From: an uncultured Candidatus Saccharibacteria bacterium
Lineage (GTDB): Bacteria; Patescibacteriota; Doudnabacteria; UBA920
Length of the DNA: 64,000 nt
Reading direction: 5' to 3'
NCBI GenBank assembly: GCA_964617815.1
Contig: CAZTXY010000001.1
Coordinates: 67,120-131,119 of the forward strand
In this document: positions 23,114 through 50,095 of the stretch, one piece after another
How the letters are laid out: every line of letters starts with the position of its first letter
How positions within the stretch are numbered: the stretch's first letter is position 1
Program-made: the position numbers and the translations under genes
Notes under the pieces: model-generated
Database searches by the model: none
The model's input: only the letters and a program-made list of their open reading frames with translations
What the model was told of the DNA's origin: nothing

Positions 23114-23164
23114 TCCATCTCCTCCTGCTGAAAATAGAATCCACGCCGTCTTTGACCCACAAAA

Positions 23165-23207: not shown

Positions 23208-23418
23208 AACCTTTGTACAAAATTCTGCGTTTATATCAGTACGAGGTTGCTACTTCATTTTCCCAAAACTTAATGACACCAACAATGGAGGCCATTGCTA
23301 GAGTAGTGTAAGTAATTTGGTTACGATGAGTAGCTATATTCATATTTGTAAATCAAAATAAGCTTAAACAAAGTCCAAACATCTGTCAAATAATTTATCC
23401 ACAGCCTTAAACTACTAA

Positions 23419-25096: not shown

Positions 25097-25103
25097 AAAT
25101 GTA

Positions 25104-25135
25104 GAGGCCGTCCCGAAGTGAATCGGGACGGCCTC
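25104..25135. terminator. bidirectional terminator hairpin between htpX (+) and the paralog-1 gene (-)
   Basis: 13-bp perfect stem gaggccgtcccga/tcgggacggcctc. Confidence 0.65.
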
Positions 25136-25149
25136 ATTGCTGGAAAGCG

Positions 25150-25710: not shown

Positions 25711-25716
25711 GGCGAA

Positions 25717-25738
25717 TTCCTCCGGCTGAAATGTCGAC
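25717..25738 (-). promoter_or_regulatory. conserved 22-nt 5' leader including the SD (copy 1)
   Basis: ttcctccggctgaaatgtcgac is identical to 27959-27980. Confidence 0.7.
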
Positions 25739-25743
25739 GCCCT

Positions 25744-25772
25744 AGTATAGTTATTCTTGCAATCCGAGTCAA
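25744..25772 (-). promoter_or_regulatory. sigma70-type promoter TTGACT-17-TATACT for paralog 1
   Basis: On the minus strand, ttgact then 17 nt then tatact. Confidence 0.7.
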
Positions 25773-25788
25773 TGCCTAACTTTGTAAT

Positions 25789-25837
25789 ATAAAAAAATCG
25801 AGGGGCAGACAAAACGCGAAAGCGTTCGCCTGCCCCT
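25789..25837 (-). terminator. Rho-independent terminator after purC
   Basis: GC-rich stem ggggcag...ctgcccc followed by ttttttt on the minus strand. Confidence 0.7.
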
Positions 25838-25842
25838 TTGCC

Positions 25843-26691: not shown

Positions 26692-27214
26692 CTTGCTTCC
26701 CTCCGTTTGAACTTTGAACCCCCACTTGCACTGACTTCCGATGAGTTTCGGAATATGTGAGAAGGTTACTGCTAACTGCTGGGTCCACCAGACCAACAGC
26801 AGTGCAAGCTGCTAAGCCGGCGTTGTGCAGTCCAGCTGAGTCAAGACCCAGCACGCAAACTGGCACACCTGGCGGCATTCGGACCATCGAAAGAAGTGAA
26901 TCCATGCCAGAAAGAATGTCAGCGCTTAGCGCCACACCAAAAACCTGCGCTCGGTTTGAAACATGCGAAGCAATTGCTCCGGGTAAGGCCGCCGCCATTC
27001 CAGCAACAGCAATAAACACGACCGTACCAGTCTGGAGCTTGTGCTCGCAGTACTGGCGCAAATCTTCGGGATTGCGGTGAGCGGAAATGATCGAAAGTTC
27101 CCAAGTGACTCCAACCCCGTTGAGGATTGGAAACAACTGAGACAATTTTACCATCTCCAAATCACTTGCACTCCCCAAAACAACAACCACGCTATGGCAA
27201 GCATCCAGAGACAC
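26684..27214 (-). CDS. purE: PurE-family mutase/carboxylase (N5-CAIR mutase or AIR carboxylase)
   Basis: VVVLGSASD, SAHRNP and AGMAAALPG align with PurE. The GTG start has AAGGAGG 5 nt upstream. Its TGA overlaps the purC ATG in ATGGATGA. Confidence 0.85.
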   Translation of the reverse strand: MSLDACHSVVVVLGSASDLEMVKLSQLFPILNGVGVTWELSIISAHRNPEDLRQYCEHKLQTGTVVFIAVAGMAAALPGAIASHVSNRAQVFGVALSADILSGMDSLLSMVRMPPGVPVCVLGLDSAGLHNAGLAACTAVGLVDPAVSSNLLTYSETHRKSVQVGVQSSNGGKQDG

Positions 27215-27266
27215 AACGCCCTCCTTGCTTCGCAGAGTTGCTCCTTGGAGCAGTAGAACCTGCCCT

Positions 27267-27295
27267 ATAGTAGAACACTGGCTTAAAAAAGGCAA
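27267..27295 (-). promoter_or_regulatory. candidate promoter TTGCCT-17-TACTAT for purE-purC
   Basis: It sits between the upstream terminator and the purE SD. Confidence 0.5.
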
Positions 27296-27309
27296 GATTC
27301 TCCTTCTTT

Positions 27310-27357
27310 TTTATTAAAAATGAAATGCGGCCGTCTCGATTTCTCGAAACGGCCGCC
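27310..27357 (-). terminator. Rho-independent terminator after paralog 2
   Basis: Stem gcggccgt...acggccgc followed by a T-run on the minus strand. Confidence 0.65.
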
Positions 27358-27372
27358 TAAAACCAAAGCCGA

Positions 27373-27951
27373 CTAGATGTCAGATTCACCCTCGCCCTCA
27401 TCCTCCGCACCGGTGGCTTGACTTGCCAAGTACTTCTCGACGCACTCATCGAAGAACTCAGAAAGCCCTCCCAAGCCAGAATGAACAGCGGAAAAACCGA
27501 AGTTCCCCGCATCCATGGCCCCTGTCAGTTCATTGGACTTTGTTCGCAGTTGGGACGGCTTCAACGTTCCCGAAGCCATCTCGTTGTAAAGACCCGTGGC
27601 CTTTACAAACATTTCCTCGTACCTGAGTAAGCTAATCCGACCCTTCAGTCCATTGAAGTAGAGGCCGTAAACATCACGTGCGTTCTGCTCGGCCAGCCGT
27701 TTCTCCTTAGACCAAGTGTCAGGAATTGGGCGCAAAGAATTGAAAGCCTTGCCAAACCCCTCTGCTTGCTTGGTCCAGAACTCAATGCTCCTCTGCTCGG
27801 GATGAAAGCCACTTGCCACAAGGGCCGAAAGCATGTCCATGCACGGCTTGTGCTTCCCTTGAAAGTGCCACTTGGCAAGTTGCCACGTTGCCATACACAC
27901 CACCATTACAAGAATAGTAGTGACTACTGCGACCTGGTCAGTCTGTAACAT
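27373..27951 (-). CDS. membrane-anchored protein of unknown function, paralog 2
   Basis: 192 aa with an N-terminal TM helix. GGAGG lies 7 nt upstream. It is the paralog of 25150..25710. Confidence 0.7.
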   Translation of the reverse strand: MLQTDQVAVVTTILVMVVCMATWQLAKWHFQGKHKPCMDMLSALVASGFHPEQRSIEFWTKQAEGFGKAFNSLRPIPDTWSKEKRLAEQNARDVYGLYFNGLKGRISLLRYEEMFVKATGLYNEMASGTLKPSQLRTKSNELTGAMDAGNFGFSAVHSGLGGLSEFFDECVEKYLASQATGAEDEGEGESDI

Positions 27952-27958
27952 CGCTTAT

Positions 27959-27980
27959 TTCCTCCGGCTGAAATGTCGAC
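27959..27980 (-). promoter_or_regulatory. conserved 22-nt 5' leader including the SD (copy 2)
   Basis: Identical to 25717-25738. Confidence 0.7.
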
Positions 27981-27985
27981 CACCA

Positions 27986-28014
27986 AGTATAGTTTAAAAA
28001 AACGCCAAAGTCAA
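27986..28014 (-). promoter_or_regulatory. sigma70-type promoter TTGACT-17-TATACT for paralog 2
   Basis: On the minus strand, ttgact then 17 nt then tatact. It matches the paralog-1 promoter hexamers exactly. Confidence 0.7.
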
Positions 28015-32266: not shown

Positions 32267-32360
<94 letters not shown>

Positions 32361-34531: not shown

Positions 34532-34620
<89 letters not shown>

Positions 34621-35705: not shown

Positions 35706-37790
35706 ATGCCTGACCTAAAAGATCAAGTCAGCTCCATCCCGCGCATTCGCAAGTCCACGGTTGCTTCCTTAACCAAATTAGGAATTACCACAATAGAGGA
35801 CCTGCTTTTTTATTATCCTTACAAATATATAGACTTTAGTAAACTTAGTTTGATTAAAGATATCCGCGATGGTCAAACTGTGACCATTAAAGCAACTCTT
35901 AAAAGCATAAACAACCGTTTTTCATTTCGTAGTCGCCTCTCAGTCTGCGAGGCTCTAGTCACAGACGCCACAGGTTCAATTAAAGTCATTTGGTTTAACC
36001 AACCGTACATAAAAAATTACTTGCTTGAGGGAACTGAAGTTCTGCTATCTGGCAAAGCGAGTTTTTACAAAACTTTGCAACTCCAAAATCCAGTTTATGA
36101 GAAAGCCGAAGGCGAGACCATTCACACTGGTCGTATTGTCCCGGTTTACCACCAAACACAAAACCTTCCCAACCGTACTATCCGGCGGTTTATTTGGCAC
36201 GCAATTCCAAGCCTCAGCGAAGTAATAGACCCACTCCCATTGCCAATTCAAAAAACCCATAAATTACTAACCCTATCAGAAGCTCTAAGACAAGTTCATT
36301 TTCCAGATACACCACAAAAACTAGAGCAAGCTAAAGCTCGCATTACTTTTGATGAAGCCTTTGTTCAACAATTAGCTGTGGCAAAACACAAACAAACTCT
36401 GAGACAGCTTCCAGCGCCTGCCATTCCCGTAAACGTCCCCCTAATTAAAAAAGCGCTCCAAACTCTACCTTTTCAATTGACCAACGGACAAAAAAAAGCC
36501 CTGTGGCAAATTGTCCAAGACATGGAGTTCAAGCACCCTATGCATAGGCTTCTTGAAGGTGACGTGGGTAGCGGCAAAACTTTAGTCGCCCTCATTGCAG
36601 GTCTTGTGTGTATGAATGAAAATTTTCAAGCTATCCTTTTGGCCCCAACAGAAATTCTAGCCAAACAACACTACGACAGTCTTCGAGAATTCTTAACACA
36701 GTTACCAAAACCATACAACAACATTCAAACTGGACTGCTAACCAATCAATATCGCTTAGTTGATAATATCAGCACAACCAAACCTTTACTTAATAAAAAA
36801 ATACAAACTGGCAAGATAGAGTTTTTAGTCGCTACCCATGCTATTTTTTACTCAACACTTAAATTTTACAACTTAGGGCTTGTTATTATTGACGAGCAAC
36901 ATCGTTTTGGCGTACAACAACGCGCTGAACTGGCAAAACCTTTTCAAAGTCATAAACAAAAAAAACTTCAAGCCCCCCATTTACTGTCTATGACAGCAAC
37001 TCCTATTCCAAGAACCTTAGCACTCACTGCCTTTGGTGATCTTGATATTTCTATCCTTGACGAATTACCCCGTGGTAGAAAACCAATTACCACCACAATA
37101 GTTAAAAATGACCAGCGCACTCAAACTTACGAGTTAATTAAGGCGCAACTAAAACTTGGCCGCCAAGCCTTTATTATTGCTCCCAGAGTTGAAGAAGATT
37201 CACAAAGCATCAAAGCTTCGGTCAAGCAAATGTTTGATGAGATGAGCAAAATTTTTACAGGCCATAAACTTGGCCTGCTATATGGCAACATGAAAGGCGC
37301 TGACAAAGAAGCAGTTATGACTAGCTTTAACGCAGGAGAAATTAACATATTAGTGGCAACTTCGGTTATTGAAATTGGCATAGACGTTCCCAATGCCACA
37401 GTTATGGTTATTGAAGGAGCAGAAAATTTTGGTCTTGCCCAACTACATCAACTTCGCGGCCGTGTTGGCCGAAGCCAGCACCAATCTTACTGCTTTCTAT
37501 TTAGCTCAAATAACGAACCAGAAAATAACCAGCGCCTACAATTTTTTGCCACTACCACTGACGGTTTTGCATTGGCCGAATTTGACCTCAAAAATAGAGG
37601 GATGGGGAGCCTTTTTGGCGAACAACAAACTGGCTTTGCTTTTAAATTCTCCCAGTACTTAACCGTAGAAACTCTAAAAATGGCCAAGCTATCGGCCACA
37701 GAAGTGTTGAAGGATGATCCAGAACTAGCTAACTATCCAGCCCTTCAAACCCTAATAGAACCTTATTTAAATAAAATCCATCTGGAATAA
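35706..37790 (+). CDS. recG: ATP-dependent DNA helicase RecG
   Basis: Wedge domain, DExH helicase motifs GDVGSGKT and DEQHRFG, and QLRGRVGR. Confidence 0.95.
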   Translation: MPDLKDQVSSIPRIRKSTVASLTKLGITTIEDLLFYYPYKYIDFSKLSLIKDIRDGQTVTIKATLKSINNRFSFRSRLSVCEALVTDATGSIKVIWFNQPYIKNYLLEGTEVLLSGKASFYKTLQLQNPVYEKAEGETIHTGRIVPVYHQTQNLPNRTIRRFIWHAIPSLSEVIDPLPLPIQKTHKLLTLSEALRQVHFPDTPQKLEQAKARITFDEAFVQQLAVAKHKQTLRQLPAPAIPVNVPLIKKALQTLPFQLTNGQKKALWQIVQDMEFKHPMHRLLEGDVGSGKTLVALIAGLVCMNENFQAILLAPTEILAKQHYDSLREFLTQLPKPYNNIQTGLLTNQYRLVDNISTTKPLLNKKIQTGKIEFLVATHAIFYSTLKFYNLGLVIIDEQHRFGVQQRAELAKPFQSHKQKKLQAPHLLSMTATPIPRTLALTAFGDLDISILDELPRGRKPITTTIVKNDQRTQTYELIKAQLKLGRQAFIIAPRVEEDSQSIKASVKQMFDEMSKIFTGHKLGLLYGNMKGADKEAVMTSFNAGEINILVATSVIEIGIDVPNATVMVIEGAENFGLAQLHQLRGRVGRSQHQSYCFLFSSNNEPENNQRLQFFATTTDGFALAEFDLKNRGMGSLFGEQQTGFAFKFSQYLTVETLKMAKLSATEVLKDDPELANYPALQTLIEPYLNKIHLE

Positions 37791-37888
37791 AAAACCCTTG
37801 ACGGTACGGCCTAACTGTGCAAAAATGGGAGTTAGTTACGGACGAAAAGTGATGCCTCCAAAAATCGCCACAACAGGAGAATATTCCG

Positions 37889-38182
37889 ATGGCAACTCAA
37901 GCATCATCTGTCGCCGTGGAACAGCGCCCCACAACAACCCGCAGCAAACAGGAGGACGGAAGTATCGGTTATGGGACCCTCAAAGAAGGGCCCCGAGAAA
38001 TCGGAATCCGCGTCTTTGGGTTCGTTGGAGTAAACAACGTGGTTGTTTGCATCAATGAAACCACGACGCTCAGGACAGTGAGCATCAACAAGACCTGCCT
38101 TCGGGACAGTGACCCGAAAAGGTACGGCGATGTTCTGAAGCCACTGCCGACAAATCAGTACACGTTCCCCGAACAGGACTGA
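37889..38182 (+). CDS. small hypothetical protein (97 aa) in a GC-rich insert
   Basis: AGGAG 9 nt upstream of the ATG. A strong terminator follows. The local GC is clearly above the surroundings. Confidence 0.35.
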   Translation: MATQASSVAVEQRPTTTRSKQEDGSIGYGTLKEGPREIGIRVFGFVGVNNVVVCINETTTLRTVSINKTCLRDSDPKRYGDVLKPLPTNQYTFPEQD

Positions 38183-38190
38183 TTCCATTG

Positions 38191-38252
38191 CCGGTGCACA
38201 CAGATTTTGGAGACCCGCTCCAGAAGAAGTGTGCACCGGCTCTCTTCTTTTT
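38191..38252 (+). terminator. Rho-independent terminator (long GC-rich hairpin)
   Basis: 11-bp stem ccggtgcacac/gtgtgcaccgg with an inner stem, followed by ctctcttcttttt. Confidence 0.65.
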
Positions 38253-39588
38253 AAAATAATTTTTGAACGTCAATAATCTGTTTTACAGAAAGTTGAGAGA
38301 TATCCGTCTTTAAACCTTTGGTCACAGTATTTGAGACAATTTCAGAAAACCCAAGCTTTACTGCTTCCTTGGCTCGCTTTTCACTTTGAGTCACCCCACG
38401 AACCTCACCAAGCAAACCAATTTCTCCAAAGGCCAAGAGACCTTCACTGAGGGCTTTATTTTTAAATGAAGATAAAATAGCCAACGCCACTGGTAAGTCT
38501 GCTGCTCGTTCACTAATATTAAAACCTCCAGCAACGTTTACATAAACATCGTGACTACTTAAATTTATTTGTAGAGACTTTTGCAGGATCGCTAAAATTA
38601 ACTGAAGGCGATTGAGGTCGAAGCCAGAAGTTGTTCTTCGTGGATACCCAAACTGCGATGGGTTTGTCAGTGCCTGAATTTCTAAGATAAGCACTTTGTT
38701 GCCTTCTAAAATTGCAGCAGCACAACTTCCCGGAAGTCCAGTCAAGCGATTTTCCAAAAACATAGCCGAGGGATTTTTGACTTCAATCATACCTTGTTCG
38801 GTCATCGCAAATACCCCAACTTCCCCACTGCTACCAAATCTGTTTTTACTTGAACGAAGCAATCGCAAACTTAAAAAACGTTCCCCTTCTAAATATAAAA
38901 CTACATCTACCATATGTTCCAAAGTTTTTGGCCCTGCTAACATTCCATCTTTTGTCACGTGGCCAATAATTAAAATGCTGGTGTGCTGTTGTTTGGCCAC
39001 GCGCATAAGTGTATTTGTGGCAAACGCAACTTGGCTAACACCTCCCACAACACCACTAACTTCACCAGAACTAATAGTTTGAATAGAATCAATGACGGCA
39101 AGAGTTGGCTGTTGGGCAATTAAAGTCGCAACTATCGTTTCTAAATTGGTTTCAGGAAAAACCAGCATGTCACCACTATTTTCTAACCGCGCGCTTCGAA
39201 GCTTTATCTGTTGAGCAGACTCTTCGCCAGAAATATACAACACCTTTTTGTTCGTGCCAGCAATATTCACCGCCGCCTGCAGTGCCAAAGTAGACTTACC
39301 AATTCCAGGGTCGCCGCCTAAAAGCACAAGAGCCCCAGGCACTAAACCGCCTCCTAGCACACTATCTAACTCAGAAATGCCAGTGCTAAACCTCGCGGTT
39401 TTTTGGTCCTCTAATTCTGACAACAATAAAACTTTTCCGGCCGTTGCGCCCAAAGCCGACTTAGTCAAACCAGAAAAAGCCTGTTCGGCCAAAGTATTCC
39501 ATTGGCTACAAGTGGGGCATTTCCCCTGCCAGCGCGAAGAGGTAGCCCCGCAATTACTGCAAATAAATTGAGTGGTTGGTTTAGCCAT
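38251..39588 (-). CDS. radA: DNA repair protein RadA/Sms
   Basis: N-terminal C4 zinc finger, RecA-like GDPGIGKST, and a Lon-like C-terminal domain. Confidence 0.95.
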   Translation of the reverse strand: MAKPTTQFICSNCGATSSRWQGKCPTCSQWNTLAEQAFSGLTKSALGATAGKVLLLSELEDQKTARFSTGISELDSVLGGGLVPGALVLLGGDPGIGKSTLALQAAVNIAGTNKKVLYISGEESAQQIKLRSARLENSGDMLVFPETNLETIVATLIAQQPTLAVIDSIQTISSGEVSGVVGGVSQVAFATNTLMRVAKQQHTSILIIGHVTKDGMLAGPKTLEHMVDVVLYLEGERFLSLRLLRSSKNRFGSSGEVGVFAMTEQGMIEVKNPSAMFLENRLTGLPGSCAAAILEGNKVLILEIQALTNPSQFGYPRRTTSGFDLNRLQLILAILQKSLQINLSSHDVYVNVAGGFNISERAADLPVALAILSSFKNKALSEGLLAFGEIGLLGEVRGVTQSEKRAKEAVKLGFSEIVSNTVTKGLKTDISQLSVKQIIDVQKLF

Positions 39589-39709: not shown

Positions 39710-39751
39710 TACTAGGCACTAGGAACTAGTTACTAAATGCTACTGACTCAC
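39710..39751. repeat. tandem heptamer array NACTAGN x4-6
   Basis: Reads tactagg cactagg aactagt tactaaa tgctact gactcac. It overlaps the stop codon of the ORF ending at 39740. It is preceded by the palindromic hairpin aaaagccc/gggctttt. Confidence 0.65.
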
Positions 39752-40900
39752 ATCTATATAATATAACCCCTCATCCTGCATATTCTTAAAAAACAACTTA
39801 TCGTTAGTCAAATTCAAAAACATTTCACGTGCATCTACAGCCAATCCTGGGTCAATCTGTTTTTGCGTGGCAGTTTGTGAATCAATTTCGTAAATAATAT
39901 CTTCAGTTAAACCTTTATCTGGCAGGCCTCGCGTTGGTACTGCAGCATAAAGTTTTTGGCTATTGTTAGCCCAAACTACTTTATCAACCGTTGTAAAAAC
40001 CCCCAAATTTTTTGTCTCACCAGAAACTACGTCGCCAACCCAAAGCTGATACCTCTGGCCATCACTATCCCTGCGACCAAAAACAAACTTCTGACTGTCG
40101 GGTGCCCAAAGCACTCCAAAGTTATAACCTTCTTTAACTACAGACTTAAAAATTTGTCCATCCGAAGTTGTTAAGTTAATCGCGTTACGCGAATCTGTAC
40201 TTGCAAGCCGATAAAATAAAATTGTTCGGCCATCAGGAGAAATATTTAATTCATCATCATTCTCCCATATATCTGCTATCGTCGTATAATTAGTACTGTC
40301 GGGGTCAGCAATACTCAACGTAGACTTCCCCTCTTCATCTAACCAAATATAAATTATTCGATCCCCAGTCGGCATCCAATTCACCGAGGTAATTTGACTT
40401 GGCAAATCTGTAAAACCACCCTTTAGACTGTCGTACACGCTCCAGGTTCTACTTGTTCCACTTCCAGACTGAACCATAAAGTTATTACCAGAAAGTGGCC
40501 AAATAACTTTTGAGCCTCCAGACTTTTGAGGAATTACCAACTCTTTTTTATTTGCCAACAACACTACCCCATTGCCAATCTGCAAATCACTTTGAAATAA
40601 TTGCCCTTGCTTATTAAAATAAGTAATTCCGTTACCTTGATAAAACAATACCGGACTGACAACCTGGTCTTCAGTTAAGCGAATTGCCTTAACCCCAGTG
40701 TTAAAACCAGAACCAGAGTTATTAGGGATTTCATCTTGCGGAGGCTGATTTTGAGTGTCGTCTGTATTTGCCTGAGTATCACTAGGTGTATTTGCATTTT
40801 CTTCATCACCAGATTTACTGCGTTGAAAAATCAACACTGCTAGTGTAATAACTATAAGTAAAAATATGCCGCCTAAAATCGCAATCGCTTTTTTATTCAT
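39740..40900 (-). CDS. secreted beta-propeller protein (TolB/PD40-like repeats)
   Basis: N-terminal TM helix or signal peptide, a low-complexity linker, and repeated beta-strand-rich units with recurring W/Y-x-P-D-G motifs. Confidence 0.5.
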   Translation of the reverse strand: MNKKAIAILGGIFLLIVITLAVLIFQRSKSGDEENANTPSDTQANTDDTQNQPPQDEIPNNSGSGFNTGVKAIRLTEDQVVSPVLFYQGNGITYFNKQGQLFQSDLQIGNGVVLLANKKELVIPQKSGGSKVIWPLSGNNFMVQSGSGTSRTWSVYDSLKGGFTDLPSQITSVNWMPTGDRIIYIWLDEEGKSTLSIADPDSTNYTTIADIWENDDELNISPDGRTILFYRLASTDSRNAINLTTSDGQIFKSVVKEGYNFGVLWAPDSQKFVFGRRDSDGQRYQLWVGDVVSGETKNLGVFTTVDKVVWANNSQKLYAAVPTRGLPDKGLTEDIIYEIDSQTATQKQIDPGLAVDAREMFLNLTNDKLFFKNMQDEGLYYIDVSQ

Positions 40901-41007
40901 TATATCCTGTTGATTTTTGTATCAAGATACCCATAAATCTTTAACCATATTATATCACACAAGCTCAAATTTCACCAAATATTATGATCTTCAACCAATC
41001 TATCCCA

Positions 41008-41087
41008 CTGTCATCCTGAATAAAATGAAGGATCTCAATAATAGGCTCAGAGATTCCTCTCCGCCAGTCGGCGGATCGGAATGACAG
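41008..41087. repeat. MITE-like palindromic element (copy 3)
   Basis: ctgtcatcctga ... gaaggatctca ... gagattcctc ... tcggaatgacag. The terminal inverted repeat is CTGTCATCC/GGAATGACAG. Confidence 0.75.
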
Positions 41088-41116
41088 TAGAATAGTTATA
41101 TAATTCTAAAAATCTA

Positions 41117-41932
41117 CTACTTTAAAGCCTCTTCAATCGCTTGTTTAAAAGTCGCGTAACTTTGGGCTCCCTCAAAACGTTTACCATTTACAAATACAGT
41201 TGGAGTTGCCTGCACACCATACTGAGTACCACCTTGTGTTTCAGTCTCCACATCTACTTTATGAATTCGGCTGTCAACACAAGTATTAAAGTCAGTAGCG
41301 TTTAAGCCGATGGCTTTGCCAAACTTTTTTAAATTAACTTGAGAAAAAGCTCCTTCATTTTCTCCACCTTGGTTGTCGTACAAATAATTATGAAATTCCC
41401 AAAACTTCCCTTGATCTTGCGCACACTTCGCCGCTTCTGCAGAAAAATGTGATTCTTCTCCCAAGAAAGCATAATCCTGATATGAAAATTTAACTTTACC
41501 AGTATCTACATAGTCAATTTTCAACTGTTTATAAACAGTATCGTATAATTTTTTGCAAAATGGACACTGGAAGTCTGCGTACTCCACAACTGTAACTTTT
41601 GCGTCCTTATTTCCCAAAATAGGCGCAGTGTCAGGAAGTTTCAAGTCAACTTGTTGTGGAACCACTGGTGCCTGCTGACCTGCCGGAACAACGCCAAGTT
41701 TAGTTTGACTTGTAAGAACAGTGTCTAATTTTGTAGAAATTGTTTTAGTGCTATACCAGACCACTCCACCAATAACCCCAGCTCCAATAATAATTGCCAA
41801 GAAGGCAAACAGGCCAATTATCAAAGCCACGCCAAATAACCTACGGTCCTGTGGTGTTAAATTTATTTTTTTTGCCGTAGCAATCTCTTCGGCAACTGGT
41901 TCACTAACTACATCATCATTTTCGTTTTGCAT
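41117..41932 (-). CDS. DsbA-like thiol:disulfide oxidoreductase (membrane-anchored)
   Basis: N-terminal TM helix and a thioredoxin fold with the CPFC active site. Confidence 0.8.
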   Translation of the reverse strand: MQNENDDVVSEPVAEEIATAKKINLTPQDRRLFGVALIIGLFAFLAIIIGAGVIGGVVWYSTKTISTKLDTVLTSQTKLGVVPAGQQAPVVPQQVDLKLPDTAPILGNKDAKVTVVEYADFQCPFCKKLYDTVYKQLKIDYVDTGKVKFSYQDYAFLGEESHFSAEAAKCAQDQGKFWEFHNYLYDNQGGENEGAFSQVNLKKFGKAIGLNATDFNTCVDSRIHKVDVETETQGGTQYGVQATPTVFVNGKRFEGAQSYATFKQAIEEALK

Positions 41933-41941
41933 AAATCTCCT

Positions 41942-42436
41942 TTATCGAATATTAATTGATTGTTCATTTTCAACTGCTTCTTCTGGAATTATATCATATG
42001 GAGGACAAAAACTAAGTCCATAATTTTTTTGATTATCTTGTTTAGAACTACCTGGTAAAGACAAGCCTAATGATACTGACAACTTACAAGCATCGGCTTT
42101 TTCAATATCAAGTCTTTTTAAAAAATCCACTTCAGCAAGTTTTCTATTTTCTAAAATAGGTTTAGCCATAATTAAAATGTAGAAAGTTTGGTTATCATCA
42201 TCAAAAAATGTAATATATTTATCATTTTCTTCTATAAATACATCGCCAGTCTCTTTTGAAAGAACCGAGGGCAATTGATGAAAATCATTTACAGCAACGA
42301 TTGCACCAGAAGATGTTTCTAATTTTAGTTTCGCAGTTTTTTCTGAATCCTTGCTAAGATAGTAAAAGACACTCGCTAAAACTAAGAGCAACAAAATTAT
42401 TATCCCTATTATTATAATTATGTTTTTTTTAGTCAT
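41942..42436 (-). CDS. small membrane-anchored protein in the T4SS-like cluster
   Basis: Start trimmed to MTKKNIIIIIG. One TM helix. Confidence 0.45.
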   Translation of the reverse strand: MTKKNIIIIIGIIILLLLVLASVFYYLSKDSEKTAKLKLETSSGAIVAVNDFHQLPSVLSKETGDVFIEENDKYITFFDDDNQTFYILIMAKPILENRKLAEVDFLKRLDIEKADACKLSVSLGLSLPGSSKQDNQKNYGLSFCPPYDIIPEEAVENEQSINIR

Positions 42437-42438
42437 AT

Positions 42439-44673
42439 TTATTGTCCGCACTTTCCAGAGGAATACTCTAAATAATAACGTGAACCAGTAACAACATAAT
42501 TGCGGGTTTGGCAATAAGTCGCGCTTGCCGCACAATCATTGGTCACATTACTTCCAGGTATACAGGCTGTTTGAGCACCGCTCGTAAAAGGACATTCCCA
42601 AAAGAATTTTCCTGGACAAGAATTACTTGATCTCCAAGGGCCTCCAGGACCTTCACCAGCATTGTAGGCAGCCAAAATATTCCCAATATTATTCCCAATA
42701 TGTGGTTGGTTTGGAATTTGTGATAAATATTTAGTACCACAAAAAATATTTGCTCGCGGGTCACAAGCATCACTAAACGAACCGCATCCTAATCCAGCCC
42801 ATGTTCCTGGTATAATTTGCATTAAACCTTTAGCCCCAGCGGAGCCGTATCCAGTCTGACAATTTCTCCAACCACTTTCTTTTTGAATTACTGCCCTAAT
42901 TAAACTAATATCAACACTATATGCGCGGGAAGCCTCAGCAACAATTCTATCTAAATCGCCATGATTACAAGTAGCAGTTCCCCCTAAATCACATCCGCCA
43001 CTACAAACACCACCGCCAGAACCCTGAACAATTACACACTGTCCTGATCCAGGACCAGGCTCAACACCGCCACCCCCACCTGTCCCGCCACCGCCGAAGA
43101 GTCCTCCGCCGCCAGCACTAAGCGATAACTTTCCACAAATTTCGCTGAGAGCTTGAAATTTTTCTAAACCGGGAACAAAATAAGTAGCGCCGGGAACGTA
43201 AGAAGTTATATTGCCTGCTGTAGAAATCCACTGCGCTCCAGGCAAATTACAAATGACAACAAAAAATAATGCAATCCAAAGAGCTATCCCTATTAAGTAT
43301 ATCGCATTTAGCACTCCTGTGATAAGCATTTTTATCCACCCCATTGGCTGACGAATCCCAATAATAGAACCAACTAAAAATGCATCTAAAACAATTAGCG
43401 GGAGAAAGCCGATGGGGATAAGCACAATAGAAAGTAAACACAAAATGCATATAGCAATCAACCACACCGCCATATCGTCAAGGCCAGACTTAATGACAGC
43501 CTTAGCACTTTCGATAGCAATATTAATAGCAACACCAACACCGGGTGCAACATTGGCGGCAGTAGCCGCTGTTTCAGCAACTGCAGCTGCGGCATCAATA
43601 GCAATATCGGCACCTAACTTAGCAGTCTCTGTAACTTTACCAAGACCACTTGCTTCTTCTATCTTATGTTTGCGATTTGCAATGTCAGCACCTGCATCAA
43701 TTACAGCGCCACCAATGGACAATGCCCCAGAAATATTCGCAGCTTTACTCCCAGCTTCTGCCCCCGCTACACCAGCTTTTATAGCATTACCAGTAATTCC
43801 AACTCCGGCTTTAGCAGCTGTTCCAGCCACTTCTGCAGCCTCAGCTCCACCACGAATAGCTCCTGCAGCCGCACGTTCGGCCCCGGCTCCCCGGCCCACA
43901 GTCCGAGCAGCTCCGCCTAAGCGAGCTGCATCTTCAACACCTTCTTCAGCTAACTCTTCGCCTGCTTTAACAGATGCTTTTCCCGGAGCACCGGGCTGCC
44001 CTTCAACAGTTTCTGATTTTGGAACGTCATCTGGAGACTCAGCCTTTGCTTTTGCTTGATCACGCTCTTTTACGCGCTTATCGTAATCTTTCTTGTGACG
44101 CTCTGCAAATTCAACCGGGCCTTCCTTTTCCTCTTTTTGTTGCCCTTGTTGTGCGTCGTTTCCTGTTTCTGCTTTTTTTTCTGAACCATCTCCTTCTTCA
44201 TCCGGACTTTTTAGCCGATCTTCAGTTAAACTTTGATCATTTTTTTGTGCTTGGTCGTCTAGAGCATTTTCTTTAGAAAAAGATTCATTGTTCGAAGAAG
44301 TTTGTTGTTGATTAATATTTTGATTATCATTGAAAGCTGATGCATTATCTCCGCCTGTATTGCTAGGTGTGGTCTTGCCACGAAAAGGACTAACTGTGCC
44401 AGGTTGTGAAGAGGACCCCCCATTTCCTTTTTGCTTAAAATCAACTTGAGTAACCTTAGTTTTTACTTTTGGATCATTAGAAACAACCGTGACAGGTTTA
44501 TCACTTTCTGCATCTCCACTTTTTTTTGGCACAACGCGCATAGCAGCGCGGGGCTGGCCATCACCCTGACTGCCTCCTTGAATAACAGAAAAGCCTGGCT
44601 GCTCTCCAGCCGATTGTTCTTCGTTATCTACATCGGAGTCGGTTGGCAGTCTTGCCAGGTTATCATTCGCCAT
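42439..44673 (-). CDS. VirB1-like lytic transglycosylase fusion protein
   Basis: Disordered N-terminal region, Ala-rich region, TM helices and a Gly-rich linker. The Cys-rich C-terminal domain carries SLT motifs QKESGW, GLMQI and AYNAG. Confidence 0.7.
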   Translation of the reverse strand: MANDNLARLPTDSDVDNEEQSAGEQPGFSVIQGGSQGDGQPRAAMRVVPKKSGDAESDKPVTVVSNDPKVKTKVTQVDFKQKGNGGSSSQPGTVSPFRGKTTPSNTGGDNASAFNDNQNINQQQTSSNNESFSKENALDDQAQKNDQSLTEDRLKSPDEEGDGSEKKAETGNDAQQGQQKEEKEGPVEFAERHKKDYDKRVKERDQAKAKAESPDDVPKSETVEGQPGAPGKASVKAGEELAEEGVEDAARLGGAARTVGRGAGAERAAAGAIRGGAEAAEVAGTAAKAGVGITGNAIKAGVAGAEAGSKAANISGALSIGGAVIDAGADIANRKHKIEEASGLGKVTETAKLGADIAIDAAAAVAETAATAANVAPGVGVAINIAIESAKAVIKSGLDDMAVWLIAICILCLLSIVLIPIGFLPLIVLDAFLVGSIIGIRQPMGWIKMLITGVLNAIYLIGIALWIALFFVVICNLPGAQWISTAGNITSYVPGATYFVPGLEKFQALSEICGKLSLSAGGGGLFGGGGTGGGGGVEPGPGSGQCVIVQGSGGGVCSGGCDLGGTATCNHGDLDRIVAEASRAYSVDISLIRAVIQKESGWRNCQTGYGSAGAKGLMQIIPGTWAGLGCGSFSDACDPRANIFCGTKYLSQIPNQPHIGNNIGNILAAYNAGEGPGGPWRSSNSCPGKFFWECPFTSGAQTACIPGSNVTNDCAASATYCQTRNYVVTGSRYYLEYSSGKCGQ

Positions 44674-44691
44674 AAATTTGTACTAACCTAA

Positions 44692-46536
44692 TTATCCTGC
44701 AAACTGGTCTTTGCTTTCTTGAATTTCCAGTAACTGTTTCGGGTCTGTTGTAATTATTTGGTCTTCCATGTAGGAAGCGTAAATTTTGATAGCCGCATGC
44801 TTAAGTCCAGCAAAAAATATTCCTTCACCAACATCACTTTCAAGTAATAAATATTTCTCACCTTCAGTTAAAAAGAAAGTTTCAGCCACAATATCCACAG
44901 ACGCAGGACTTTGCTTAAGAAGTAACTGAATTGAAGAGTTTGTGACAATTGGTTTGCCGTACGGACTACTCATAAAATCTGCGACATCCTGAGTGATTGT
45001 TGTAAGACCAAGATAATATTTACGAGCGCGCTTGGCAATTCCATACACAAACCGAGCGGAGTCTTCGTGTTGCATAAGTATCCAAGCTTCATCAAGTACT
45101 AAGATACGGCGCTTCAGCTCGCTTCTAACCACATTCCAAATATGTCCTAAAATTAAATACATTGCCACTGGCCTTAGCTCGTCTTCTAAATCGCGAATTG
45201 AAAAAACTAAAAGCTGATTATTTAAAACAACGTTGCTTGGCTGGTTAAGAAGCCCAGCAAAAGTTCCTTCGGTAAACTTCGAGAGACGCTGAGCTAAACT
45301 TTCCGCACCCACCATATCACCTAAGACAGAAACTAAATCACTCATCACCGGATAGTCAGTGGTCTTAAGTTCCATGCCAGGAGTAATATCTTTGTTCGCA
45401 TACGCCTGCCAAATAGCTTTATCAAGTAGCGCTTCTTCAGTTGGATCTAGTTTACCTAAAACTAAATTCATCAGCCCCAAAAGTCCAATCACCGCACTGC
45501 GCATGGTGTCACTACTGTCTTCACCTTCAAGACCAATAGGTAAGTCAAAAGGATTAATGCGGTAGTCTGAGTTAAGCGAGATGCTTAAATATGTTCCACC
45601 AACCGCGTCGGCTAAATGTTTATATTCATTTTCAGGATCCACAATTAAAACTTCAATGCCAACCATCAAAGAACGCAGGACTTCTAATTTCACCGCATAC
45701 GATTTTCCGGCACCAGACTTAGCAAAAATTACAAAATTAGCATTTTCCATCTTAAACCGGTCAAATAAAATTAAACCGTTGTTGTGCCGGTTAATCCCGT
45801 AAAGTACTCCATCATTTCCAGTTAAATCCGAAGACACAAAAGGAAAAGTTGTCGAAAGGGGGCTGGTATTTAGATTATTTGCTACACCTAAATCGTCTAA
45901 TTGCATTGGCAATGTCGAGTTAAACCCAGGTTGCATTTGCATTAAGGCTCTCTTTGTAACCACGAGCTTCGCACCAAGTGCACTTTCAAGAATAGTTGAC
46001 TCTTTGTCGAGTTCGCGAAGATCTTTAGCATACAAAGTAAAATACAAAGCAAAACGAAAATACTTTTCAGTACCTTGCAATAAATTATCGCGCAATTCCT
46101 CGACGTCGTGATATCCTGTTTCCAGTAATGGATCACGTACCAAACCTTTTTCTCGGTTAATCATCATTTGTGAACCAATCTCTCCAACCTTCCCTTTCAA
46201 CTTTCTCAAGATTGTTCCAGAGTCAATTGGGTAAATAAACATTGAGACATCTAATGCCCCTTGAGAGTTGATAACAAACGACAACCAGTTCGAAGATAAA
46301 TAACGTGGGTAGGTTAAGACAAAAAAACTACGCGCAAATTTTCCATTCAACTCAAAATGGTCAGCCTCAAACTTCAAGCTTGCAGGCGCTATAAGGTCTT
46401 TAAGCGAAGTTAAACCTTGCTTATAGCTATCTTCAAGAGTACTAAGCTCTTTTCGAGTCGCCTCTTTACTCTTGCGCTCCTCAAGCTCATGCTTTTTCGC
46501 TTCTAATTGTTCTTCTGAAAGGTTAAACCAAGACAT
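44692..46536 (-). CDS. VirB4/TraC-like conjugal transfer ATPase, C-terminal ATPase part
   Basis: Walker A FAKSGAGKS and the Walker B region VLDEAW. Family-level resemblance to VirB4/TrsE. Confidence 0.8.
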   Translation of the reverse strand: MSWFNLSEEQLEAKKHELEERKSKEATRKELSTLEDSYKQGLTSLKDLIAPASLKFEADHFELNGKFARSFFVLTYPRYLSSNWLSFVINSQGALDVSMFIYPIDSGTILRKLKGKVGEIGSQMMINREKGLVRDPLLETGYHDVEELRDNLLQGTEKYFRFALYFTLYAKDLRELDKESTILESALGAKLVVTKRALMQMQPGFNSTLPMQLDDLGVANNLNTSPLSTTFPFVSSDLTGNDGVLYGINRHNNGLILFDRFKMENANFVIFAKSGAGKSYAVKLEVLRSLMVGIEVLIVDPENEYKHLADAVGGTYLSISLNSDYRINPFDLPIGLEGEDSSDTMRSAVIGLLGLMNLVLGKLDPTEEALLDKAIWQAYANKDITPGMELKTTDYPVMSDLVSVLGDMVGAESLAQRLSKFTEGTFAGLLNQPSNVVLNNQLLVFSIRDLEDELRPVAMYLILGHIWNVVRSELKRRILVLDEAWILMQHEDSARFVYGIAKRARKYYLGLTTITQDVADFMSSPYGKPIVTNSSIQLLLKQSPASVDIVAETFFLTEGEKYLLLESDVGEGIFFAGLKHAAIKIYASYMEDQIITTDPKQLLEIQESKDQFAG

Positions 46537-46540
46537 ATAG

Positions 46541-47245
46541 TTAACTCACTTCATTATTATTTCCAACAATCGCTATTTCTCCTAATTTTCCAGCATCGAT
46601 TAGCGGTCCCGACTCAAAATTATACGAATTATAAAATAGCTCAATCAGCTGTTCGGTATTTAGTCGCACTGCACGCAAACTCATCCCACCTAAGTTATTG
46701 GCAACACTACCAGCCCGTTCATCAAGTAAAGTTCTAACTTTTTCAAAATTTTCCAGCCTTTGGGCAATTTCCCGTGTTTTAGTACTTTTAAATAATCTTG
46801 CAAAAAATCCCGCTTTAGGAGGAAAAATATTTTGGGGCAATGAAATAATAATGTAAAAATTTTTATTCATTATATTTGCGCTCTCAACTAAATGGCTAAT
46901 AAACTCAATGTACTCACCAGTTTGAATGCGTAGCAATTCATTAGGCTGTTTTTCCATTAAGTGTTTTAAACTTTCGGTGTAGTCACCAATATCCATTCTT
47001 CGACTCTGCATTAAAACTTGGATTGGAAAATCCAACGAATTAATAAACCGCTGATATGCAACAATTAAAGCATCTTGTTCATCCTGACTCTTAAGATCAA
47101 AGTTTGTGCTTGAAACAGCCACCACGGCACGCAGGGTTCCGTCTTCCATAACAACACAGTCGTTGCGAATTTCATAAAATCGCAAAAATGATTGCGTTGG
47201 TTTTAAAATTGGTTTATTTGATTTTTTGTTTGAAAAAAGTCCCAT
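46541..47245 (-). CDS. VirB4-like N-terminal domain encoded as a separate ORF
   Basis: TAA-CTAT-ATG junction with the downstream ATPase ORF. The sequence pattern resembles the VirB4 N-domain of Gram-positive T4SS. Confidence 0.5.
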   Translation of the reverse strand: MGLFSNKKSNKPILKPTQSFLRFYEIRNDCVVMEDGTLRAVVAVSSTNFDLKSQDEQDALIVAYQRFINSLDFPIQVLMQSRRMDIGDYTESLKHLMEKQPNELLRIQTGEYIEFISHLVESANIMNKNFYIIISLPQNIFPPKAGFFARLFKSTKTREIAQRLENFEKVRTLLDERAGSVANNLGGMSLRAVRLNTEQLIELFYNSYNFESGPLIDAGKLGEIAIVGNNNEVS

Positions 47246-47253
47246 AAAATAAA

Positions 47254-47700
47254 TTAAAGTGGTTTATCTGCCAAAGCTGTCTCTGCAGCACCTTGCTGTG
47301 AAAGAGTGTAATTAAGTTTATGAAGCCTGACCGTTGCACTTTCCTGCTCTATTTTTGGAAGAGTAGTATCTGCTTGTTTTGTTTCTTGATCCATTAAAAT
47401 TTGGTGAGAAGAATCTAGCCCTTGTTTTGAAAAAATTAGAACTCTTGGGCTGACCATATACTGCAAATACGGGTAGAAGGTTGAATATAAAGGCCGACCG
47501 TTAATTTTTGCGAAAGTCAAAATTAACGCTGGCATTCCAAAAATTAAAAAGGCAAAGATGCCAACAATAATACTTTTTGTTCCTGTATAAAGCAAAAATG
47601 TCAGTGCGGCACCTGCACCTAAAATACCAAACTGCTTTAAAGTCAGTCCAGCTATGATTTTGTCTTCTACATCTGTAAATTGTGGGACGCTATATTGCAT
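47254..47700 (-). CDS. VirB3/PrgI-like small membrane protein
   Basis: 148 aa with two adjacent TM helices, sitting directly upstream of virB4. Confidence 0.4.
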   Translation of the reverse strand: MQYSVPQFTDVEDKIIAGLTLKQFGILGAGAALTFLLYTGTKSIIVGIFAFLIFGMPALILTFAKINGRPLYSTFYPYLQYMVSPRVLIFSKQGLDSSHQILMDQETKQADTTLPKIEQESATVRLHKLNYTLSQQGAAETALADKPL

Positions 47701-47744
47701 TCGTCTCTTTTTAGTATATCACACTATTTGCTTAATTGATCGCT

Positions 47745-48707
47745 CTAATTTACTTGAGTAGCACGCAAGACATCAATAACTGCTTCAAAATCTGTTTTAG
47801 ACATCCCGCCTAAATTTGCTGTAGTATTTGGGTCTGAATGCATCAATGCTTGCTGGCCTGCTTTCATATACTCTTCATACAAAGGACTTTTTTCTAACAA
47901 AAATAAAACTGAAAAATATCCAAACTTTTTAACTAAGGACCTCATGGCTTCAAGTAAATCATCTTTCCCAAGTGACATCACTGTCGACCGATTTAAGTGC
48001 TCTACATCTTCTAAGGATTTAAGCTCGAGCGGAACTTCACTTGAAAAATTAGTTTTCGCCACTTCCATTTTCTGGGGCAACTCACTTAAAGAGCTATGCT
48101 TAAGCAAAGCGCTATAGTCAGTCTGCTTAGTGACAACTTTTTGCAAATGAACAGGGGTTATTGGCTTCAACCCTGCTTTCACCAAAGGTAGGCCTGCGGT
48201 AGGGTTAGGACGAGCATTTATTGATGCCAAAGGCGCTGTCGCAATACTAGGTCTTGCAGGAGAGTTAAGTTGATGATCAAAATCTTCTTGACCACTTTCC
48301 AATTCTTTTTCTGTCATGACCTGTGCCAAACTTTTTGCAAAAGCCCCTGTAGTTTGACCCTTGTCTTCGTGCCTAAATGTTTTCACCTGAGAACTTAAAG
48401 TTTGCTGAGGAGCACCCAAATTATTTGGTAAATTAGTTATATGATGAAGGCGGTTTGCAGTTAGAGGAGCAGAAGCCACTGGCTTAAGAGATGCTGAAAT
48501 TGGCCCAGGTTTTGGGCGCTGTTGTGTTTCTGGTAATTTTGCAATGACCACGCTAGAAGACGGCGCAGATAAAATAGTGACTAAGTCACTTAGCTGTTTG
48601 TCATTCATCACCGGCAAACTCTCAAGCCATGTTGTTTTTTCATCGGGCTGGAGTAATTTTGAAAAGGCAATAAGATTTTTAATTTTTTCTAGCGGTATAG
48701 AAGTCAT
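47745..48707 (-). CDS. hypothetical protein in the T4SS-like cluster (P/S/T-rich)
   Basis: 320 aa with no recognised domain. Confidence 0.4.
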   Translation of the reverse strand: MTSIPLEKIKNLIAFSKLLQPDEKTTWLESLPVMNDKQLSDLVTILSAPSSSVVIAKLPETQQRPKPGPISASLKPVASAPLTANRLHHITNLPNNLGAPQQTLSSQVKTFRHEDKGQTTGAFAKSLAQVMTEKELESGQEDFDHQLNSPARPSIATAPLASINARPNPTAGLPLVKAGLKPITPVHLQKVVTKQTDYSALLKHSSLSELPQKMEVAKTNFSSEVPLELKSLEDVEHLNRSTVMSLGKDDLLEAMRSLVKKFGYFSVLFLLEKSPLYEEYMKAGQQALMHSDPNTTANLGGMSKTDFEAVIDVLRATQVN

Positions 48708-48715
48708 TGTTTGCC

Positions 48716-50095
48716 TTATAAATCTTGAGACTCTTTACGTTTTTTTAAATCCTGTAACCGTTGCTCAATTTGCGAAGCTTCTAGCGCTCGCTTTTCTTGG
48801 CTTTGTTTTTTCATCTTTTCTATATCTACACTCCCTGCTCCACCACCAAGACCAACACCAGAAGATGGCACAACATTTCCAGCTAAGTCAATTGATTGCC
48901 TAGTAGTTCGATTATTAAGCAGGTCTTGCAAATTTACAGTTGGACCAAAAGGATTAGCCCGAGAAACTCCACTCATTGGCTCTGACTCTGTCTCTGGACT
49001 TATTTCTGCAACTGAAGCTTCAGCTTTTTGTTCATCTTGTTTTACTTCCGAAGCTGTATCTAAGTTTATAGAAGACAGTGGCTGAATATTTTGTAATAAC
49101 TCTGGGGGAAGACGAACTGGTTTTGGCGGTGTGGGAACTTGTTCCAAAATTGAGGCAGCTTTAGCATTTATTTTGGCTTTTGGTGGTTCTGGCGGAGTTG
49201 GTAATTCCACTGGACTAAACTCGGAGTCTGTCAAAGAAAAATCTTTGGCTTTTGAAGCGAGAAGCACATCTCTTGTGTCTTCGTACTTTTCAATTTCATC
49301 AGGATCAACTTCCGGCTTAAGTAGCCACTTATAAAATTTTATCAACTCAGTTAATAACTTTTTATCCTGTGGTGATAAACTCGCAACATTACTAGACTTT
49401 GTCATGTAGGCCGCTTCATCAAATACAGATGTAGCAGAGAGTGGTTTAGCAATAAAATCACCGTAATCTAAAATCCAATTTTTAATTACTGGTTGATACT
49501 GCTTACCGGAAATAACTAACGCTTGCGTTCCTAATTGTTCTTCATTTTGTTTAAGACTAGAGACAAGCGGTAGACCCCAATTTTCTTTATTCTCACCATA
49601 CTGATAATAATAAACCCGCTTAAATTCCATGCGCACATCGCCTGCATGCATTAAGTAGAGTAGGTTGTACCGAATTAAACCAGAGAGCTCCTCCAGTGGA
49701 AATTCTTTAAACAGCTTGACTTCAAACTCAAGCATGGCCTGCAGTAAAGAAAGATCTGCGCGAATTTTGCCCTTGTTTACAAGCGTCTTTACATCAACAA
49801 CCATTGGTACCAAATACTTCCCAAAGTCATAATTTGGATCATCAAGTCCTGACACTAACAACTCCGTTAAAAATTCTGGTTCATTGCCAATTGCCAATTC
49901 CGGTAACTCTACGGAGTCTTTCATAACTTGGAAGATATAGCGGTGCATTCGAGGAAGATCTACCTTATGAAGCCACATATACAAAAACTTTTTTGTATAT
50001 GTTCCCATAGAAAGAACATGCGAAACTAACCACTGTTTTTCAGTGTCACTAAAGCCTGATGCTGCTATAGCAGTTGTTAGTTCTTTATCATCCAT
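48716..50095 (-). CDS. hypothetical protein in the T4SS-like cluster
   Basis: 459 aa with a structured N-terminal half and a disordered Pro-rich C-terminus. Confidence 0.4.
   Translation of the reverse strand: MDDKELTTAIAASGFSDTEKQWLVSHVLSMGTYTKKFLYMWLHKVDLPRMHRYIFQVMKDSVELPELAIGNEPEFLTELLVSGLDDPNYDFGKYLVPMVVDVKTLVNKGKIRADLSLLQAMLEFEVKLFKEFPLEELSGLIRYNLLYLMHAGDVRMEFKRVYYYQYGENKENWGLPLVSSLKQNEEQLGTQALVISGKQYQPVIKNWILDYGDFIAKPLSATSVFDEAAYMTKSSNVASLSPQDKKLLTELIKFYKWLLKPEVDPDEIEKYEDTRDVLLASKAKDFSLTDSEFSPVELPTPPEPPKAKINAKAASILEQVPTPPKPVRLPPELLQNIQPLSSINLDTASEVKQDEQKAEASVAEISPETESEPMSGVSRANPFGPTVNLQDLLNNRTTRQSIDLAGNVVPSSGVGLGGGAGSVDIEKMKKQSQEKRALEASQIEQRLQDLKKRKESQDL

Follow-up and report, generated by a model that had tools for sequence, protein, structure and literature searches.

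Hot spots of accessory gene turnover flanked by core genes are known in bacterial chromosomes. Phage morons carry their own promoter and terminator, deviate in base composition, lie between genes that are adjacent in relatives and occur at hot spots that hold different cargoes (PMC2920897). The 64,000-nucleotide stretch of DNA analysed here (contig CAZTXY010000001.1; hereafter the window) belongs to a Doudnabacteria-like chromosome of the candidate phyla radiation (CPR, Patescibacteria), and the 460 nucleotides (nt) at 37791-38250, between its convergent genes recG and radA, very probably constitute an autonomous single-gene transcription unit inserted at this junction, with one open reading frame (ORF) for a protein of 97 amino acids (aa), termed ORF97. 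Like morons in the sense of Hendrix and Juhala, the unit 1) consists of a single ORF with its own predicted promoter and factor-independent terminator; 2) lies between genes that are adjacent in relatives (0-12 nt apart there, 460 nt here); 3) has a composition unlike that of its neighbours (GC 0.52 versus 0.41-0.43); and 4) has counterparts in other genomes in which different units occupy the same hot spot. Unlike morons, it lies between two housekeeping genes, recG and radA, of a bacterial chromosome, with no phage genes nearby and no phage homologues found, and its composition seems stable rather than recently imported. Being outside any phage genome, it works like a moron without being one. 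With core-flanked chromosomal hot spots the locus shares the retention of the flanking core genes, a content that is either empty or one of several unrelated cargoes, and a mode of replacement that fits homologous recombination through the flanks. It differs from them in that the recG/radA slot is tiny and always holds one small gene, in units of 441-488 nt; in that its cargoes share layout and codon signature; and in that no integrase, tRNA or mobile-element gene is evident at the slot, the absence of an integrase applying to the surrounding 8-11 kb, which were not searched for it systematically. Integron gene cassettes likewise are compact single-ORF modules with an imperfect hairpin at the end that are exchangeable at a fixed site; we rejected this identity, as the unit has its own conserved predicted promoter and no GTTRRRY/RYYYAAC core sites were seen at the hairpin on reading.

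That a GC-rich stretch interrupts the convergent recG/radA junction had been noticed in an earlier reading of the window's letters alone (the original prediction), and base composition agrees: GC content is 0.518 for 37795-38255 and 0.525-0.54 in 200-nt segments across 37800-38199, against ~0.40-0.43 in the flanks (52% for the recG-radA gap against a background of 40%), and just 3.3% of the 400-nt segments of the whole window, whose mean is 0.403 (standard deviation 0.045), reach 0.52. The identities of recG and radA were confirmed by Pfam domains on identical genes in the related locus L005 (RecG_wedge/DEAD/Helicase_C for recG); their neighbours are other chromosomal genes, and synteny is kept across relatives. 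In the closest species-level genome, a metagenome-assembled genome of Candidatus Doudnabacteria (L009; RadA 65% identical to that of the window in the best tblastn segment and 61.8% in global alignment), the gene order is the same and just 12 nt separate the radA stop from that of recG. The junction is also empty in L093 (0 nt) and in the Kerfeldbacteria locus L046 (~8 nt). Since related recG and radA stops lie 0-12 nt apart, the unit of the window is a true insert, as had been supposed.

Judged by its pattern of change among relatives, ORF97 is a real protein-coding gene, and the original prediction, which had singled out this plus-strand ORF for its well-spaced Shine-Dalgarno sequence (AGGAG, 9 nt before the ATG) while leaving the coding assignment uncertain, chose the functional reading. 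A comparison of homologues revealed that: 1) the ORF97 family comprises three clusters at 90% identity (P0002 and P0003 being 74% and 71% identical) and a 93% variant in L008, and every homologue sits between recG and radA, in four related metagenomic lineages. 2) The DNA alignments contain three indels within the ORF, of 6, 12 and 9 nt, all of them multiples of three. 3) Substitutions at codon positions 1/2/3 number 13/12/26, 14/18/31 and 15/12/28. 4) The ratio of nonsynonymous to synonymous divergence (dN/dS, omega) is 0.24-0.36, at a dS of 0.52-0.62 with respect to L001 and L002 and a flank dS of 0.40-0.65. 5) When all six frames are compared, in answer to the frame test proposed in the original prediction, that of ORF97 alone combines an omega below 0.4 with the absence of stops from every lineage; the five others have 2-6 stop-containing codons each, with omega of 0.9-2.0 in four and 0.42-0.56 in the fifth, the latter value being the usual opposite-strand echo of a coding frame. 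The dN of 0.14-0.20, next to 0.03-0.05 for recG and 0.005-0.009 for radA, means that the amino-acid sequence changes ~3-30 times faster than those of the neighbours while still being under purifying selection; with a dS like that of the flanks, the protein is thus fast-evolving yet constrained. Automatic gene calls at this slot are unreliable: the slot ORF is uncalled in L091 (5354-5794) and L095 (4905-5373), and in L089 (3861-4133) an antisense ORF of 90 aa is called instead of the conserved sense ORF.

The elements predicted to control the unit (Table 1) are better conserved than the gene itself. The control block directly past recG is 92-97% identical among four lineages, at a divergence where neighbouring synonymous sites differ by 31-43%, and contains a predicted sigma-70-type promoter 7 nt past the recG stop, with a -35 box TTGACG (37798-37803), a 17-nt spacer and an extended -10 element TGcAAAAAT (37818-37826). 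Both hexamers are invariant in the alignments of related lineages, and transcription is likely to start near 37832-37835. The leader folded alone is no more stable than its shuffles (z = 0.38). At the other end stands a predicted two-tier hairpin with an outer stem of 12 bp (38190-38201 / 38229-38240) and an inner one of 8 bp (38205-38212 / 38218-38225), followed by TCTCTTCTTTTT, the U-tract running 2 nt into the radA stop codon. Its folding energy is -36.5 kcal/mol (z = -7.0), and 0/200 shuffles fold as well; the terminator with a T-run pointed out in the original prediction is therefore real as a structure, but its stem has 12 bp and not the 11 bp given there. Identity among lineages is 92-100% in the terminator hairpin and 72-79% in the ORF. 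The control block and the hairpin are thus constrained more strongly than neutral sites.

Table 1. Features of the recG/radA junction and of the adjoining gene cluster, in window positions.
Feature	Position	Strand	Basis or remark
recG, 694 aa	35706..37790	+	ORF list; upstream core gene; stop codon 37788-37790
Conserved control block: promoter and first ~24 transcript nt	37791..37856	+	Alignment, per-segment identity
Predicted sigma-70-type promoter	37798..37826	+	Consensus scan
5' leader, ~55 nt, with Shine-Dalgarno AGGAG at 37875-37879	37833..37888	+	Sequence
ORF97, coding sequence of a 97-aa orphan protein	37889..38182	+	Same-slot homologues, indels, dN/dS, six-frame comparison, AlphaFold2 model
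Predicted intrinsic terminator: two-tier hairpin 38190-38240 and U-tract 38241-38252	38190..38252	+	Fold, conservation
radA, 445 aa	38251..39588	-	ORF list; convergent core gene; homologues named RadA/Sms
PD40 beta-propeller protein	39740-40900	-	
DsbA-like thioredoxin	41117-41932	-	
SLT lytic transglycosylase	42439-44673	-	
VirB4/TraG-type ATPase	44692-46536	-	
PrgI-family protein	47254-47700	-	

In further relatives the same junction is occupied by other small genes. Taking ORF97 and its homologues as family A, the unit of L090 (RadA 67.2% identical to the window in global pairwise alignment, as for the following values) is 469 nt long with an ORF of 77 aa (family D), that of L091 (66.7%) is 441 nt with an ORF of 76 aa (family B), that of L095 (65.6%) is 469 nt with an ORF of 74 aa (also family B), and that of L094 (67.4%) is 488 nt with an ORF of 61 aa (family C). 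In all four the small ORF is co-directional with recG and comes with a ribosome-binding site, a large terminator hairpin and a sigma-70-like promoter-like sequence shortly past the recG stop. Searches with hhalign and BLASTP among the slot families recovered no significant similarity except between the two family B members (A versus B: 2.8% probability), and the five slot types were too divergent for a global alignment to be of use. Family B is likewise an orphan, with three clusters in all in a word-indexed search. A neighbour-joining tree of RecG and RadA (1095 columns) places the occupied lineages together and the empty ones outside. Compared across these loci, the junction is a variable slot: in related lineages it either is empty or contains a unit alike in size and layout but with another small ORF. 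Given this variation, ORF97 is an accessory orphan, and neither an RNA nor a novel type of system. It represents a new orphan family in a known situation, in which core genes flank a hot spot and the accessory gene between them is lineage-specific.

The sister lineages L090 and L091, with RadA 96% and RecG 85% identical, share only a 74-nt terminator (94.6% identity), and their promoters, leaders and ORFs are unalignable, with no detectable similarity over ~360-390 nt. As only the terminator is shared, at least one replacement of a promoter-plus-ORF module has occurred within a conserved frame. This terminator (AAAACCGATAC ... GTATCGGTTTTAT) is found in homologous form in L090 (5381-5460), L091 (5354-5440) and L095 (4905-4990), and with its A-run before and T-run after the hairpin it could serve the slot gene and, from the opposite side, radA; the terminator of the window is unrelated to it, and its U-tract is confined to the plus strand. 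In L008 the unit (3189-3614, corresponding to 37827-38253 of the window) has a mosaic structure. From the leader through the first ~45 codons it resembles L002, and over the remaining ~250 nt, towards the 3' end, it does not differ at all from the window, in a locus whose flanking genes differ by a dS of ~0.5. This explains its low dS of 0.14 and indicates recent recombination inside the unit. L008 further carries, like L005, L006 and L007, 86 extra nt between recG and the promoter of the unit (3051-3156), of which 66 nt form a piece that holds a nearly perfect palindrome of 46 nt (GTTCACAAGGGGAGTC...GACTCCCCTTGTGAAC); this piece is flanked by 20 nt that repeat the 3' end of recG in direct orientation (TAAAATCCATCTGGAATAAA). 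The palindromic piece has no copy elsewhere in the window or in the other loci, and the extra DNA may be the footprint of an insertion or recombination at the recG stop.

The product of ORF97 is a protein of ~10.7 kDa, predicted to be soluble, with no signal peptide or membrane segment; its tryptic peptides include EIGIR, VFGFVGVNNVVVCINETTTLR and TVSINK. By the searches made here it is an orphan, its family being restricted to a few very near relatives of this ultra-small groundwater bacterium. Hainich groundwater and JGI 33000453xx are among the sample sets from which the related loci L001-L004 and L089 come. When 1.84 billion cluster representatives were searched with a profile, its own cluster alone came back, and scanning 185,579 species genomes for its pattern yielded no relative. 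There was no match in Pfam or PHROG, nothing below E = 0.14 in a profile search of PDB sequences, no match by blastn or tblastn in phage and plasmid collections, and no family at E up to 1 among the PADLOC-DB defence models for ORF97 and four other slot proteins. Viral-contig scans with all four slot families found none, and in the literature on Doudnabacteria or on orphan small-gene hot spots of CPR bacteria we found nothing about this locus. An AlphaFold2 model built on a 3-sequence alignment has a mean predicted local distance difference test score (pLDDT) of 67.5, rising to ~80 in a core of about residues 25-80, and shows five strands with a 3-10 turn before the last one, residues 1-22 and 90-97 being disordered. 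The modelled topology suggests a five-stranded SH3-like barrel, with Foldseek E-values of at least 0.14, and we predict that the core of ORF97, at about residues 25-75, is an SH3-like beta-barrel with flexible polar tails. The assignment being moderate and generic, it says little about function. Small SH3-like barrels such as KOW, Tudor, the retroviral integrase C-terminal domain and Sm-like proteins have no sequence similarity to ORF97, which differs from these families in standing alone and having long disordered tails, and the fold is too generic for a transfer of function. Among specific identities, the YbaB/EbfC nucleoid-associated protein (TIGR00103) was matched by P0003 only, at 17.4 bits (E = 0.0035) against a cut-off of 49.45, with ORF97 itself having no NCBIfam match, and is also at odds with the predicted all-beta fold; a type II toxin of the CcdB/MazF barrel type is spoken against by the lack of a partner gene in a monocistronic unit, a ribosomally synthesized and post-translationally modified peptide precursor by the absence of a neighbouring modifying enzyme, and secretion by way of a classical signal peptide by the fact that none is visible.

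The original prediction had attributed the high GC content to a common foreign source with two other GC-rich islands of the window, at 22.3-23.2 kb and 25.1-28.0 kb. These are real islands of similar GC content. The GC content at third codon positions (GC3) of the plausible ORFs is bimodal, the ORFs of the three regions alone lying at 0.47-0.64 (ORF97 at 0.61 and five island ORFs) and all others at or below 0.42, recG and radA at 0.35-0.36; and the trinucleotide profiles of the three regions correlate at 0.54-0.71 with one another and at 0.12 with the host. Together with the empty junction of some relatives, this would suit a recent import of all three from one GC-richer foreign donor. Self-comparison of the insert with the window by BLAST, however, found no DNA or protein similarity and no shared repeat with the other two islands, and the third-base spectra differ: ORF97 has a C3 (share of C at third positions) of 0.37 and a T3 of 0.15, the island genes a C3 of 0.20-0.34 and a T3 of 0.24-0.33. 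The five slot cargoes share one profile, in host loci with an overall GC of 0.40-0.45, with GC3 at 0.61-0.66, C3 at 0.37-0.42, T3 at 0.13-0.20, NNC making up 70% of NNY codons and G 46% of NNR codons; in the island genes the last two values are 59% and 64%, and in host genes 30% and 29% (C3 0.15-0.24 and T3 0.32-0.36 in recG and radA). A recent common source is thus not supported.

The direction of third-position changes, polarised by parsimony on a three-lineage star (window, L001, L002), bears on the same question. ORF97 shows 10 GC-to-AT and 11 AT-to-GC changes at a GC3 of ~0.6, the flanks 35 and 43 at a GC3 of ~0.34; the flank regime predicts 70-75% GC-to-AT in ORF97, the share that decaying foreign DNA should show, against 10/21 observed (binomial P = 0.006-0.024). 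Changes that balance in this way point to a GC-rich state that is compositionally stable, and the high GC3 of ORF97 accordingly looks stable rather than decaying as far as these substitutions can tell. The unit is moreover older than the split of lineages now at a dS of ~0.5, with no net drift from GC to AT in that time; the same signature recurs in the slot cargoes of lineages at ~66-67% RadA identity; and no donor was found in the phage, plasmid, viral-contig and 185,579-species genome collections. We therefore regard a common foreign donor as improbable. The balanced changes and the shared slot signature instead favour either selection, acting on mRNA stability or on how strongly the gene is expressed, or repeated exchange among the members of a dedicated pool.

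As for the contents of the islands, that at 25100-28000 (GC 0.49-0.54) carries on the minus strand a PurE-like ORF (26684-27295) overlapped by a SAICAR-synthetase-like ORF (25843-26796), both identities being judged from reading the translations, and at its ends two paralogous ORFs of ~190-220 aa (25150-25812 and 27373-27951) with a shared motif GFHPE..FW..A.GF. The island at 22330-23210, also on the minus strand, is bounded by terminator-like hairpins (23207-23180 and 22358-22332) and encodes a Cys/His-rich ORF of 156 aa (22643-23113) and a basic one of 61 aa (22448-22633).

One might also suppose that all slot genes are one ancient resident gene diverged beyond recognition, with the cargo never replaced. 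Position, orientation and unit length are indeed equal in every occupied lineage, the C3-rich codon signature is common to the slot genes, and the -35 box is close to the recG stop in four of five lineages. Further, the predicted structure of family B (pLDDT 72.8) has the strand order of ORF97 and matches the same top PDB chains, and a polar N-terminal tail and, at the first strand, the motif IG[FY]G are common to families A and B; these two may be extremely diverged orthologues. The dissimilar modules of L090 and L091 next to nearly identical terminators are a pattern that ordinary divergence cannot yield, and the comparisons among families detected no similarity beyond family B, A and B included; we consider continuous residence of a single gene quite improbable.

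GC-rich intergenic segments in AT-rich genomes are often RNA genes, and the original prediction had allowed for a structured non-coding RNA, in which the ORF would be incidental. The 357-nt transcript body folds better than its shuffles (z = -3.5), and a 7-bp helix is predicted between the leader (37849-37855, GUGAUGC) and codons 5-7 (37901-37907, GCAUCAU), enclosing the ribosome-binding site and the start codon; in L002 and L008 this helix has undergone a compensatory U-A to A-U change by way of a synonymous TCA-to-TCT substitution, a single event in four sequences. The opposite strand folds equally well (z = -3.4), so the folding signal is largely compositional; the covariation term is just -0.25 kcal/mol, and four outer-helix pairs are broken in L008. 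The covariance models of Rfam 15 recovered at gathering score only two tRNAs in the whole window and none in 37600-38450, where even a sensitive scan reached no more than 16.3 bits against a threshold of 90 (E no better than 3.3); they gave tRNAs only on five related loci, with no match in the slots of relatives, and ARAGORN found no tRNA or tmRNA in the recG-radA region. In view of the codon-phased substitutions, the in-frame indels and an omega of 0.24-0.36 in one frame only, an RNA gene is highly unlikely. A de novo origin from pre-existing intergenic DNA would fit an orphan with no relative outside a narrow clade, but related genomes with 0-12 nt at the junction offer no raw material in place and the product is predicted to be a compact, well-formed barrel, which leaves this origin with very little probability. 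To the overlapping ORFs whose existence the original prediction had rightly noted and which are open in the window (86 aa in the +1 frame, 37798-38058; 110 aa antisense, 37904-38236; 62 aa on the minus strand) we give practically no credence as the real gene, even with the antisense call in L089, since the antisense frames contain 2-6 stop-containing codons (omega 0.9-1.5 in two, 0.42-0.56 in the third) and in L002 no open stretch of the minus strand is longer than 76 aa, since 3-5 stops and omega of 0.94-2.0 are found in the remaining plus-strand frames, and since neither the 86-aa nor the 110-aa ORF is preceded by a conserved Shine-Dalgarno site.

Several points weigh against the interpretation of 37791-38250 as an inserted, self-contained protein gene with a maintained composition: 1) the host-codon score of ORF97 (-0.06) is below that of every true-gene chunk (minimum -0.04), a score trained on the host being uninformative here because the composition is deviant in every frame. 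2) The mRNA folds better than its shuffles on both strands, so some constraint at the RNA level is possible. 3) The promoter, the start site and the terminator are predictions from sequence. 4) The equilibrium test uses a small sample, namely 21 changes polarised by parsimony. 5) The node uniting the occupied lineages has a bootstrap value of only 58%. 6) The structural model comes from three aligned sequences and Foldseek values of 0.14 or above, which makes the fold assignment generic and of moderate strength.

On the reading that we prefer, that of an autonomous accessory gene in a core-flanked slot, the extended -10 promoter directly past the recG stop would start a transcript of ~420 nt whose leader would supply the ribosome-binding site for translation of the 97 codons, which the evolutionary signature shows, and whose hairpin and U-tract, to go by structure and conservation, would end it by the radA stop codon. 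Replacement of the module would proceed, by the simplest route, through homologous recombination in the recG end and the terminator/radA end, and the high GC content and C-ending codons are probably held by selection, for instance for strong expression or mRNA stability. The product may be a soluble small barrel with flexible tails that acts as a binding module. As to its function, we can offer a tentative guess, with considerable doubt: a small cytoplasmic module that binds either nucleic acid or another protein and whose role, related to conflict or interaction, is dispensable and specific to the lineage. A bolder and rather unlikely proposal is that the junction is, in the Doudnabacteria-like clade, a dedicated expression slot, in which a conserved frame, with the promoter placed right against recG and the terminator shared, receives exchangeable modules of ~0.4 kb. 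These would encode small SH3-like proteins that evolve fast, have polar tails without fixed structure and keep a C-ending codon bias by selection, perhaps highly expressed interaction or conflict proteins such as substrates of the conserved PrgI/VirB4-type secretion-like cluster, which begins 1.5-3 kb past radA. If true, CPR bacteria would possess a class of variable locus for small proteins that has not been described before, and if the slot proteins are highly expressed or secreted they would be candidates for a symbiont-host or phage-host interface.

The analysis settles an ambiguous call in favour of a real protein gene that automatic callers miss or put on the wrong strand in relatives. 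It also offers a well-bounded case of gene gain and cargo replacement in very small, streamlined CPR genomes, in which the dynamics of accessory genes are poorly known. Atypical GC content need not mean recent import: here a preference for GC-rich codons ending in C seems to have stayed stable while synonymous divergence reached ~0.5, and unrelated genes of the same slot have it in common. The points of note are the constant size of the unit, the apparently maintained C-ending codon bias and the swap of modules between sister lineages.

Beyond radA, from 39740 to 50095 on the minus strand, lies a conserved secretion- or conjugation-like cluster of the Gram-positive type (Table 1); the same cluster genes flank radA in L090, L091 and L093. 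On the other side of the slot, the window contains two tRNA-Ser genes, at 32267-32360 and 34532-34620 (anticodons GCU and UGA), whose acceptor and T arms are nearly identical.

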